A stretch of 11,177 bases of DNA. Source: Candidatus Nanohalobium sp. (GTDB lineage Archaea > Nanohalarchaeota > Nanosalinia > Nanosalinales > Nanosalinaceae). The notes beneath the pieces are model-generated. The model was not told the DNA's origin and ran no database searches. It saw only the letters and a list, made by a program, of their open reading frames with translations. Both the position numbers and the translations under genes were made by a program. Positions 240 to 11,083 of this stretch are shown here, piece after piece; the stretch's first letter is position 1, and every line of letters starts with the position of its first letter. The stretch covers positions 1-11,177 of the forward strand of contig JBDGSL010000037.1 of the NCBI GenBank assembly GCA_042217555.1, in the 5' to 3' direction.

Positions 240-240
240 C

Positions 241-423
241 GCTTGTTACGCTAAGCGAACGCAATAGAGCATTCAAGCAAGTTGAATGCACTTCGGGATC
301 AAGAAGTCATCTCCCGAAAGCCATGCTTGCCATGGCTTCTTGCGTGTCACTCCAAAATCGCTGACGCGATTTTGTGCGTTCACAGAAACTCCTTGCGGAG
401 TTTCGCGAAGAGCGTAACCAGTC
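241..423. repeat. Multi-hairpin palindromic element (MITE/REP-like or structured spacer RNA) between the two tRNAs
   Basis: Terminal inverted repeat CTTGTTACGCT (242-252) / AGCGTAACCAG (411-421), 10/11 match. Five internal hairpins at 269-289, 292-318, 318-338, 353-374 and 385-404. Shares sequence blocks with the tRNA-Val intron. Confidence 0.7.
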
Positions 424-425
424 GA

Positions 426-585
426 TGGGTTCGCCCGGATTTGAACCGGGGATCTCCGCCAGTTTGAGGCAGTTTTCTACACGCCTAAACGCTTTCTGAA
501 AGCCATTCTGTGAATGGCTTCTTGCGTTGGCTTAGCGTAACAAGCCTTGTCAAGGCGGTGTCATAACCAGCTAGACTACGAACCC
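426..585 (-). tRNA. tRNA-Val(GAC), 86-nt intron at 37/38 (462..547)
   Basis: Minus strand reads GGGTTCG-TA-GTCTAGCTGGTTATGAC-A-CCGCC-TTGACA|intron|T-GGCGG-AGATC-CCCGG-TTCAAAT-CCGGG-CGAACCC-A. Clean BHB: UUGA/UCAA central helix, bulges CA|A and AC|U, outer GGC/GCC helix. Confidence 0.95.
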
Positions 586-4778: not shown

Positions 4779-4820
4779 TTTTTAAGAACAAAAGTACCTT
4801 ATTTTGTCATGGGTACTTTG
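4779..4820 (+). promoter_or_regulatory. TATA box and inverted-repeat operator overlapping the antitoxin start
   Basis: TTTTTAAG at about 4779-4786, ~25 nt before ATG 4809. Inverted repeat AAAGTACC (4791-4798) / GGTACTTT (4812-4819) spans the start codon. Confidence 0.55.
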
Positions 4821-5039
4821 AAGGTTGAGGGCGACGACGAACTTATCCGAAAGTTCAAACAGAAGGCCAGAGAGGAGTACGGCCAGAAGAGAGGTAGTAT
4901 AAAGAAGGCGACCATGGACCTGATCGAGAAGTGGGTTGAGCAGGATGAGAAAGTGGACTGGGGAGAACTCCGAGGCGCTATCGACAGCGACAAGACTTCA
5001 ACAGAACTTGAAGATGAGGCATGGAAGAAGGTCGATTAG
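4809..5039 (+). CDS. Ribbon-helix-helix antitoxin (VapB-like)
   Basis: MGTLKVEGDDELIRKFK...KRGSIKKATMDLIEKWV; same family pattern as 2056..2283; abuts the PIN gene. Confidence 0.85.
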   Translation: MGTLKVEGDDELIRKFKQKAREEYGQKRGSIKKATMDLIEKWVEQDEKVDWGELRGAIDSDKTSTELEDEAWKKVD

Positions 5040-5441
5040 ATGTACCTGATAGATACCAACGTTTTTCTGGAGCTTTTGCTGGATCAGGAAAAGGCAGACG
5101 AATGCGAGAAGTTACTGGGGAAAATTCTTGAGGGAAGAGTCAACGCGGCCGCAACAGAGTTCACTATACATTCAGTTCAGGGAACGCTGGCTGATAACCC
5201 AGAGACTATCAAAAGGTTCCTTGAAAGCGTTAACTCGACTATAAACATCCAAATTCTGGAGACAGAGATGGAAGAGGAGATAATAATATCGCAGTACTCA
5301 AAGGAGTCTTCACTATGCTTTGACGATGCACTTCAGTACACAGTAGCCCAAAGAGAAAACATCGAAAAGATAATAAGCTACGACACAGACTTCGACAACA
5401 CAGACCTGAAAAGAGTAGAACCCGAAGAACTACTAGGATGA
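5040..5441 (+). CDS. vapC: PIN-domain toxin (VapC family)
   Basis: Motifs YLIDTNVFLE, FDDALQY and IISYDTDFD. Confidence 0.92.
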   Translation: MYLIDTNVFLELLLDQEKADECEKLLGKILEGRVNAAATEFTIHSVQGTLADNPETIKRFLESVNSTINIQILETEMEEEIIISQYSKESSLCFDDALQYTVAQRENIEKIISYDTDFDNTDLKRVEPEELLG

Positions 5442-6414: not shown

Positions 6415-6672
6415 ATGAGCTACGTGGTTGAGGTCAAGGAGTCCGCCGAAGAGGAGATTCAATCCCTTGAAAACAGCAAGCAGGAGGAGATACTCTCCCA
6501 ACTGGAGAAACTTGAGAATTATCCGGAAAGATACGGCAAGCCTCTGCGCGGCCAGTTGAACGGACTCTGGCAGTTGAGATCAGGAAAGTACAGAATATGG
6601 TATACTGTCGAAGACGAAACTGTAGTAGTTAGAGCCGTGAAACACAAAGAAGATGCCAAAGAACACTACTGA
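6415..6672 (+). CDS. relE: RelE/ParE-family toxin
   Basis: YVVEVKESAEEEI...GKPLRGQLNGLWQLRSGKYRIWYTV...VKHK; own TATA TTTATAA at 6386-6392. Confidence 0.9.
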   Translation: MSYVVEVKESAEEEIQSLENSKQEEILSQLEKLENYPERYGKPLRGQLNGLWQLRSGKYRIWYTVEDETVVVRAVKHKEDAKEHY

Positions 6673-6839
6673 CCGACTTCTTCCTTTAGCTTATCCAGAC
6701 TCTTTGAAGGCTCGTCTTGACTTTCTTTGAGCTGCTCCATGACCTCTTCATCCTCAAGAGTCTCGATTGTAGCCTTCATAGACTCGTACTCTTCCTTTGG
6801 GATATGCACATATCCATCGTCAAAACTTACCTCGGACAT
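6666..6839 (-). CDS. Small acidic putative antitoxin (Phd/YefM-like C-terminal region), convergent with relE
   Basis: MSEVSFDDGYVHIPKEEYESMKATIETLEDEEVMEQLKES resembles the 'EEYESxxETLE-L' segment of RelE-partner antitoxins. TTTAA about 25 nt upstream of ATG 6839. Confidence 0.7.
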   Translation of the reverse strand: MSEVSFDDGYVHIPKEEYESMKATIETLEDEEVMEQLKESQDEPSKSLDKLKEEVGQ

Positions 6840-6919
6840 AAAAAGGCAAGATCCGTCAACAGTTAAATCAGTTTCGATAACACGGCAAGTTATTTCTTGC
6901 AGAAGAATCAATATGACCT

Positions 6920-10249: not shown

Positions 10250-10263
10250 CATAAGTGGTTGAA

Positions 10264-11019
10264 ATGTTCAAAGCGGAAATTGAAGAAACCGGACTGCTCA
10301 AGGACTCGATGAAAACCATATCAGACCTGATCAGCGAAGGAATATTCCAGCTGACTGAAGACGGTATCCAGCTGGTCGCTGCAGACCCTGCCATGGTAGG
10401 ACTAGTCGACTTCACACTGGAAAAAGATGTATTCGAAACATACGAACTTGAAGAGGAACAGAAAGTCGGGTTAAACATCGAAAACTTCTACTCAATCCTC
10501 AGAAGAGCCAACTCAGGTGACAAAATCACGCTGGAAGTAGACGAAGACACCAGCAAGTTCAAAATCACCATGAAAAACTCAAGCACAAGAGACTTCTCAC
10601 TTCCCATCCTGAACCTGTCCGAGGACGACATACCAAGCGTCGGAGACCTCAACCAGTTCACATTTAACGCAGAACTCGACACCAGCGTACTTGAAGGCGC
10701 CATAAAAGACGCCATGGTAGTAAGCGACGCCGTAACCATTACAGCAGATGGAAACAACCTGGAGATCTCAGCAGAAGGAGACCAAAGCGGGGTAGACTTC
10801 ACAGTACAGGACGGAGCGGAAGGGGTCCACGAAATGAACGGAGACGACGCCAAATCAATGTTCAGCCTGGACTACCTATCCAAGATGATCGGGGCCAAAA
10901 AACTATCCGATACAGTCACCGTCAAACTCGGCCAAGACTTCCCGATGAGAATGGAGTTCACACAGCCAGACCAGGCACAGCTAAACTTCGTACTGGCACC
11001 ACGCATCGAAGAAGAATAA
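10264..11019 (+). CDS. pcn: DNA polymerase sliding clamp PCNA
   Basis: Motifs MFKAEI, AADPAMVGLV, SMFSLDYL, LGQDFPM and FVLAPRIEEE; 251 aa. Confidence 0.98.
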   Translation: MFKAEIEETGLLKDSMKTISDLISEGIFQLTEDGIQLVAADPAMVGLVDFTLEKDVFETYELEEEQKVGLNIENFYSILRRANSGDKITLEVDEDTSKFKITMKNSSTRDFSLPILNLSEDDIPSVGDLNQFTFNAELDTSVLEGAIKDAMVVSDAVTITADGNNLEISAEGDQSGVDFTVQDGAEGVHEMNGDDAKSMFSLDYLSKMIGAKKLSDTVTVKLGQDFPMRMEFTQPDQAQLNFVLAPRIEEE

Positions 11020-11083
11020 CTTCTTCGCATGCTCTAAACCAGAAAATCTCCGATTTTCGGATCCACGCATCGAAGAAGAATAA
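10999..11083. repeat. 21-bp perfect direct repeat of the PCNA 3' end flanking a 43-nt palindromic insert
   Basis: CCACGCATCGAAGAAGAATAA occurs at 10999-11019 and 11063-11083. Confidence 0.9.

Follow-up and report, generated by a model that had tools for sequence, protein, structure and literature searches.

A two-hairpin element family as the probable source of a recent tRNA-Val(GAC) intron in Nanohaloarchaeota

The window, which is the whole 11,177-nt stretch analysed here, forms the start of a contig in a 1.3-Mb nanohaloarchaeal genome (labelled G000). Two interrupted tRNA genes lie on its reverse strand, tRNA-Met(CAT) at positions 50-239 and tRNA-Val(GAC) at positions 426-585. An initial tRNA scan of the window in no-intron mode found no tRNA, and an Rfam search over positions 1-900 returned no family except tRNA. 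Farther along, three small gene pairs (1671-2316, 4809-5441 and 6415-6911) were observed, which resemble toxin-antitoxin modules, two of the PIN type and one of the RelE type.

The tRNA-Val(GAC) gene consists of exon 1 (585-548), an 86-nt intron (462-547, reverse strand) placed between positions 37 and 38 of the tRNA, and exon 2 (461-426). The insertion is exact with respect to intron-less orthologues, which correspond to the two exons without the intron, and removal at 37/38 restores an intact tRNA. The anticodon arm of this tRNA occurs in a single tRNA copy in the assembly, where a second Val(GAC) gene was not found. On the reverse strand the intron opens with a first hairpin (529-546), made up of the arms GGCTT (546-542) and AAGCC (533-529) around the invariant loop GTTACGCT (541-534). 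The invariant linker ACGCAA (522-527) and a second hairpin (500-520), a perfect palindrome with a variable tip, come afterwards. The remaining tail (462-499) pairs back with this head and closes a predicted BHB, and the pre-tRNA-Val as a whole is strongly structured (z = -4.1). Assembled contigs from runs X1 (possibly the source run) and X2 (another sample taken in that study) reproduced positions 432-576 without any difference from the window; they extend 30 and 29 letters past the two intron junctions, the bridging threshold being 31 letters. Runs X3-X10, with small shares, were excluded from this evidence.

Two further elements of the same kind occupy the spacer between both genes (240-425). 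The first (311-424, reverse strand) is found directly behind the 3' end of tRNA-Val, with its head loop at 418-411, its linker at 345-340 and its hairpin 2 at 338-318, and it contains a nested double hairpin (404-385 and 374-353). The other (240-298, forward strand) is antisense to tRNA-Met and abuts its 5' end, with the head at 240-257, the loop at 245-252, the linker at 259-264 and hairpin 2 at 266-292. The latter is present at the same place in genomes G001-G004 and, being common to G000-G004, it predates the Val intron. The tRNA-Met(CAT) that it targets has an intron of 117 nt (86-202), whose core was conserved in the 14 genomes (14/14) with an ARAGORN call; in contrast to that of tRNA-Val, this is an old intron. 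Wherever this intron was called among the relatives, its core retains the boxes ATGAG and ATGATTA and presumably resembles a box C/D guide, and in G020 the intron is expanded to 203 nt through hairpin insertions.

The first-pass annotation of this DNA had proposed that the intron is homologous to a neighbouring intergenic element, based on an inverted match of 241-264 with 545-522 (23/24) and a direct match of 316-345 with 498-527 (25/30). Both matches were reproduced and are the top local repeats of the window; with the whole 1.3-Mb genome as background their E values were 4e-5 and 0.02, respectively. In full, the inverted arms span 241-275 and 511-545 (35 nt, 86%), around the core 241-264/522-545. 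The sole mismatch of that core (257 versus 529) belongs to a compensatory pair, whose other half (240 versus 546) lies just outside the match as first described. The matches are real, but they hit different spacer elements (240-298 and 311-424); the spacer holds two separate elements placed tail to tail instead of a single one. The palindrome GCCTTG-A-CAAGGC was also present at the exon-intron junction as had been reported. As a cause of the insertion it was rejected: an AGGC start is also found where no such palindrome forms, namely following the Val gene of G021, which has no intron, and in the Arg(TCT) intron of G000, and consequently the palindrome is considered incidental.

The age of the intron was studied by comparing the Val(GAC) loci of 34 genomes of the phylum. 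An intron was present in 13 of them and absent from 21, two of the latter loci ending just after the junction. The congeners G001 and G003 are intron-less, and G002 carries a different intron with a variant of the head. Five of the 13 introns have the head, with different arms in each, one is an apparent decayed relative and seven are of another type; presence is mixed in four genera and a fifth has two unlike types. Since an intron is found in only 13/34 genomes, with unlike types, and is lacking in two congeners, that of G000 is probably recent, and not ancient and invariant in the phylum. This agrees with the proposal that the element also lying beside it gave rise to the intron or enlarged it. 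Gains and losses cannot be counted because the tree of the neighbouring pyrophosphatase gene is poorly resolved (15 of 33 forks open). Separately, similar Val introns were noted in loci L004 (G002) and L223 (G049) of two different genera; these loci also cluster in the pyrophosphatase tree (97/85), which suggests a transfer of the whole locus.

Searching the genome with the intron and the spacer gave matches in many other tRNA introns and spacers. In other genomes even closer copies were found, and the neighbour need not have been the donor: the first 34 nt of the Val intron are identical to the flank behind the intron-less tRNA-Val of G021, and its start matches a Thr intron of G001 at 31 of 33 positions. 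The neighbouring element is thus a relative of the intron, as had been suggested, although as one member of a phylum-wide family and not as half of a local pair. A single local event of inverted duplication linking the intron to the spacer, or else a faulty assembly, would fit the observations that the head closest to that of the intron within G000 is the Met-side neighbour, and that these two copies pair in the unconstrained dicistronic fold. Nevertheless, the closer copies in other genomes, the identity of positions 432-576 in two samples and the 145 family sites described below make this explanation hardly credible. That the spacer is a mere local duplicate of the intron was specifically rejected, because its antisense copy is the older of the two. 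We consider it very probable that the Val(GAC) intron is a recent intron that was seeded by a family of two-hairpin elements.

The ends of the intron are compatible with archaeal splicing. In the predicted BHB of tRNA-Val, the intron bases TCAA (467-464) pair with TTGA of the exon (553-550), and GCC (470-468) with GGC (546-544), giving a central helix with 4/4 pairs, bulges of 3 nt at both splice sites and a lower helix of 3 bp. Enforcing this structure costs 1.3 kcal/mol (-60.3 versus -61.6 kcal/mol in the free fold). Among 109 canonical introns, positions 32-35 of the tRNA find pairing partners in the final intron bases (3.49/4 versus 2.56 in shuffled sequences), and in 30 introns with a head the 3' end also pairs with the 5' arm of that head (3.5 versus 3.05; 0/2000 shuffles). 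In the Cys and Thr introns of G020 a 42-nt body is identical, and the two arms vary together with the intron end. The BHB score alone is unspecific (112/405 random positions pass), and for this reason only excisions restoring a tRNA were counted. By these sequence tests the Val intron is an archaeal BHB intron, with its splicing predicted.

Concerning the enzymes, G000 encodes RtcB and one EndA of 182 aa, and from this single short protein we infer an alpha4-like type. According to the available text of PMC5829648, DPANN alpha4 EndAs with an L3 loop are associated with more disrupted tRNA genes. In G000, insertions in the D-loop of tRNA genes were observed (C3 26960-27120, C12 115150-115320 and C74 1-156), some of these genes having two introns, and this despite its single short EndA. 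The RtcB of G000 (C12 82506-85223) lies in a frame of 951 aa in which the Pfam match is in two parts, suggesting an intein.

The head of the family is defined by a covarying stem of 5-6 bp, the invariant loop, the linker ACGCAA and then a second palindrome. This strict pattern was found in 42 of the 70 genomes of the phylum (reversed control, 0/70), and the other 28 had no match to it. After dropping four loci (two duplicates and two loose-pattern hits), the census comprised 145 distinct sites. Of these, 46 are in tRNA introns, 31 directly at the 3' side of a tRNA, 16 directly at the 5' side and antisense, and 4 in a D-loop, after the 5' half; the rest are 20 sites no farther than 300 nt from a tRNA, 3 close to a T-loop motif and 25 others. 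In consequence, 120/145 sites coincide with a tRNA or a T-loop motif or have one no more than 300 nt away, and about two thirds of all sites lie outside introns. The placement is narrow: 45 of the 46 intron heads begin just after position 37, the 5' antisense copies stand 3-6 nt from the tRNA end in all 15, out of 16, that have a measured distance, and 29 of the 31 3' copies start within a span of 4 nt. Stem positions 1-5 are paired in 94% of cases (56% in shuffles, with a maximum of 62%) and show three or four Watson-Crick types each, positions 7-8 being at background level. On the element strand, hairpin 1 has T-G at position 2 in 47/145 sites and hairpin 2 has A-C in 28 cases versus 2 with G-T. 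Given that related genomes, and hence the sites of kin, are not independent, these statistics are descriptions more than tests. The Rfam search of 20 head loci outside tRNA genes gave no family.

Taken by themselves, the strong structure of the pre-tRNA and the strong enrichment of hairpin elements at tRNA genes might also be expected of old, immobile signals for RNA processing or stability that the host maintains by selection. Such an origin is very improbable, as occupancy is patchy among close relatives and the empty orthologous sites largely refute it; in addition, 28/70 genomes have no strict head, the 5' and 3' copies are oppositely oriented and many copies are surrounded by target repeats. 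With 46 of its 145 sites in tRNA introns, the family gives substance to the earlier suggestion of a possible route to new archaeal tRNA introns, and the Val(GAC) intron likely shows one such route.

The tRNA genes of G000 were then considered together. As many as 34 of the 41 tRNA calls are interrupted; relaxed ARAGORN output, mostly noise, was dropped and one spurious call on C75 was removed before this count. The Rfam tRNA search (18 matches in G000) was left out of the counts because it missed many intron genes. Among the 34 interrupted genes, 19 match another intron or non-tRNA DNA (0-3 and 0-1 in 20 shuffles) and 16 match another intron (0-1 in shuffles), these matches being partial, and 15 have no such match at the thresholds used. 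Elements are nested in one another and in the end hairpins of IS605. Arrays of element units were observed behind tRNA-Gly and tRNA-Glu (C27 26649-26965 and C37 12704-12891), and a unit behind tRNA-Glu ends in the 3' end of tRNA-Gly, indicating that it was copied from the Gly locus; such transfer from one tRNA locus to another would be recent. Protein genes are also affected, as at the other end of the window a related insertion (10999-11083, forward strand), with a hairpin GAAAATC..GATTTTC (11042-11058), repeats directly 21 nt of the 3' end of the ORF at 10255-11019, which presumably encodes PCNA.

Some rules were evident at the junctions. The bases 5' of the head stem are variable target sequence, the outer stem pairs include target bases and the final 1-3 bases of the target find their complement in the 3' arm. 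At the 27 of 31 3' sites where this is testable, since nucleotide 73 falls within the stem, that nucleotide of the tRNA pairs with the element arm in 26 (null 17.7; 0/5000 shuffles). Target repeats of at least 10 nt flank 24/145 sites, in particular 13/31 at 3' ends, 7/20 near a tRNA, 2/4 in D-loops and 2/25 of the others, versus 1.9% of 2900 random positions. At the same threshold they were found in none of the 46 introns, the 16 antisense 5' sites or the 3 T-loop-motif sites, and no trace of a decayed repeat was detected in introns (0.255 versus 0.247). The repeats measure 12-23 nt at 3' sites and 12-40 nt over all non-intron copies, vary in length and are often ragged on the inner side. The fullest form, seen in 7/9 such 3' sites, is made up of head, palindrome, inverted second hairpin type and repeat. 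As many copies have target repeats and the introns and 5' copies have none, a single outcome or a single route does not suffice.

The head was also searched for beyond the phylum. Its 22-base form was found in at least 123 metagenome stretches, corresponding to at least 112 distinct sites. Among the 112 sites listed, a cut at BHB-like boundaries restores a tRNA in 26. Clean T-loop introns, after which 14-15 nt of tRNA remain, make up 14 of these, and the other boundaries are in part wrong. Of ten neighbouring proteins looked up on these contigs, four fall in clusters named Woesearchaeota. Apparently, the head opens T-loop introns on metagenome contigs, some of them from Woesearchaeota. In the metagenome loci L375, L404, L409 and L456 the head was observed within a longer structured region that is delimited by GACA...TGTC and has G- and C-rich arms; this may be a non-coding RNA into which the head was inserted. 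Viral carriers were rejected, as in viral contigs the loose pattern gave 120 matches, of which one had a stem of at least 4 bp, and two strict patterns gave none, that is, matches were at chance level or absent.

Taking into account that 16 copies are antisense to the tRNA transcript and others lie at the ends of protein genes, insertion would occur on DNA; the invariance of loop and linker, in turn, points to recognition by a protein. We propose that the element may be copied into single-stranded DNA at nicks where the tRNA gene folds, namely at loops and where the acceptor stem ends. The invariant loop and the linker would be read by a protein, and the 3' arm would pair with the target end as a guide. 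The chemistry would be most like that of HUH/Y1 enzymes (IS200/IS605, REP), with the enzyme being a host protein or supplied in trans. Insertions breaking a single-copy tRNA would be lost. Those surviving would lie outside the mature tRNA, or in a tRNA rebuilt by target duplication, or would terminate with the junction copied in inverse orientation (anti-32-35 plus anti-arm), forming a BHB for EndA and RtcB. The Val intron would have been kept on account of its predicted excision by the host tRNA endonuclease. Mosaic introns would arise from later insertion of other hairpins and from copying between tRNA loci. Taken as a whole, this protein-guided insertion on DNA, with the intron kept through splicing, seems to us about evenly poised between right and wrong. 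The strand signals of hairpin 1 (T-G) and hairpin 2 (A-C) conflict with each other, which argues against the guided route, and the pairing of arm and target could have arisen after insertion through palindrome correction.

A search for the mobiliser gave no candidate that tracks the element: Y1 TnpA was present in only 3/41 genomes, reverse transcriptase genes in 7/70, Cas1 in 3/70 with none in G000, and IS110 in 0/70. A screen for HUH motifs in 1432 crude ORFs of G000 produced 35 motif hits, and the TnpA-type motif pair was found only in the TnpA of IS605, whose gene has a TnpB-type gene behind it. The head is absent from the ends of this one IS605 of G000, which carries other hairpins. TnpA lies beside a head in 1/253 loci; in this single case (L373, 598-1108), some 85 nt separate the end of a Y1 transposase gene from an antisense head. 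IS605-type ends were seen to carry GAAACTC..GAGTTTC and GAAATC..GATTTC inside their end hairpins (L034 1340-1430 and 2910-2995, on C11 of G000), and the same hairpin types occur in an IS605-type end on C1 of G000, at about 40330-40470.

These negative results favour a model that needs no dedicated enzyme, in which the replicative polymerase stalls at folded single-stranded tRNA DNA and switches, by a microhomology of 1-3 nt, to a copy of the hairpin at another place; the element and the filter on surviving insertions would be as above. A return in register would leave no repeat and a return 12-40 nt back would leave a target repeat, while snap-back synthesis would perfect the stems and write the inverted intron end. 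Repeats of variable length, frequently ragged at the inner edge, the nesting of elements in each other and in IS605 end hairpins, the Gly-derived unit behind tRNA-Glu and intron ends that mirror their own 5' junction would all fit template switching. However, the 8-nt loop and 6-nt linker are invariant across the phylum and the Woesearchaeota contigs while the stem covaries, which speaks for recognition by a protein, and the register is tight at 3' sites (29/31 within 4 nt). Template switching is for these reasons a serious but somewhat unlikely explanation.

Another possibility was that the intron RNA itself is the mobile unit, reverse-spliced or ligated into pre-tRNA and then copied to DNA, with the flanking copies as by-products. 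Introns are indeed the largest class (46/145), whole intron bodies are common to different isotypes, and G000 has EndA, RtcB and two reverse transcriptase genes. These two proteins, of 315-332 aa (L349 on C75 and L350 on C38), have an Avd-like gene beside one and a likely target beside the other, and look like diversity-generating retroelements, which weakens the case. Moreover, 16 copies run opposite to the tRNA and further ones are located at protein gene ends, several genomes lacking a reverse transcriptase (present in 7/70) carry heads, and reverse splicing is not expected to give target repeats. We regard mobility of the intron RNA as improbable.

A wider proposal could also be made. DPANN archaea may share undescribed gene-less single-strand mobile elements that would read the tRNA gene in its folded state, in which a hairpin arm picks the site by pairing with the target end, the splice site is self-written and the enzyme belongs to the host. 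Such an archaeal 'introner' would explain a large part of the introns in the tRNA genes of Nanohaloarchaeota (at 37/38) and Woesearchaeota (in T- and D-loops), an idea that we put forward tentatively. No published description of the head element was found in a search confined largely to open-access main texts; of relevance to its novelty may be the ncRNA table in PMC10266531 and preprint tables. For two nanohaloarchaea in culture, the accessible text of PMC10266531 gives 15 and 4 tRNAs with introns and does not comment on their source, and that of bioRxiv 10.64898/2026.09.22.753630 does not mention nanohaloarchaea.

The value of the system is that one defined element exists both as an intron and as a free insertion, and that congeners differ in whether an orthologous site is occupied or empty. 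Its rules can be written down (fixed register, arm-target pairing, and target repeat or BHB) and make the question of intron gain testable, for which cultivated nanohaloarchaea and oligonucleotides are suited. The family also explains why most tRNA genes of G000 are interrupted (34/41) and why the no-intron scan was empty.

REP sequences have a conserved tetranucleotide 5' of the hairpin foot. The head has none, since the bases preceding its stem are variable target. According to the portions available of PMC3333891 and PMC6006769, REP, BIME and REPIN elements are short palindromes with many extragenic copies, inverted doublets, mosaics, tandem amplification and flank capture. The head elements are likewise short multicopy extragenic palindromes that form inverted doublets or mosaics. 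They differ in having no TnpA-REP gene flanked by repeats, in keeping their conserved letters in the loop and linker, in their strong tRNA targeting and in their predicted conversion into spliceable introns. In archaea, only the IS-type subclass of Y1 has been seen, as far as the available text of PMC6006769 goes. With IS200/IS605, as described in the available part of PMC3333891, the head elements have in common a subterminal hairpin, guide-like pairing of arm and junction and strand-specific asymmetric ends. In IS200/IS605, according to the same text, the junction pairs with an internal guide and no target repeats are made. Unlike miniatures of these elements, many head copies have target repeats of 12-40 nt and the head is not in the IS605 ends of G000, where GAAACTC/GAAATC hairpins are present and appear nested in the end hairpin.

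Casposons insert at the 3' part of tRNA genes with a target repeat of about 15 bp, according to the available text of PMC5137440. Head copies are found at tRNA 3' ends with target repeats, which measure 12-23 nt and occur in only 13/31 of these sites. In contrast to casposons, the head elements have no terminal inverted repeats, their left and right ends being different hairpin types, G000 has no casposase/Cas1, and repeat length varies, with no repeats in introns. A mobile-element model of intron gain, with a duplicated 5' fragment of the tRNA, was described for tRNA-Thr(GGU) of Caldiarchaeum (PMC3293823, in its accessible text). That element is of 1.8 kb and has a recombinase, whereas the head elements are gene-less, measure 50-150 nt and themselves form the intron. 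Finally, the transposed BHB introns of Thermoproteales are similar in different isotypes of one genome, were gained after species split and have been attributed to a proposed DNA-level route, as given in the accessible parts of PMC4090602 and bioRxiv 10.64898/2026.10.13.758758. G000 also has related introns in different tRNA isotypes. Unlike in Thermoproteales, the head sequence is also free at tRNA ends, on either strand and often with a target repeat, and it is a defined head with a covarying stem, so that the moving unit is not the whole intron only.
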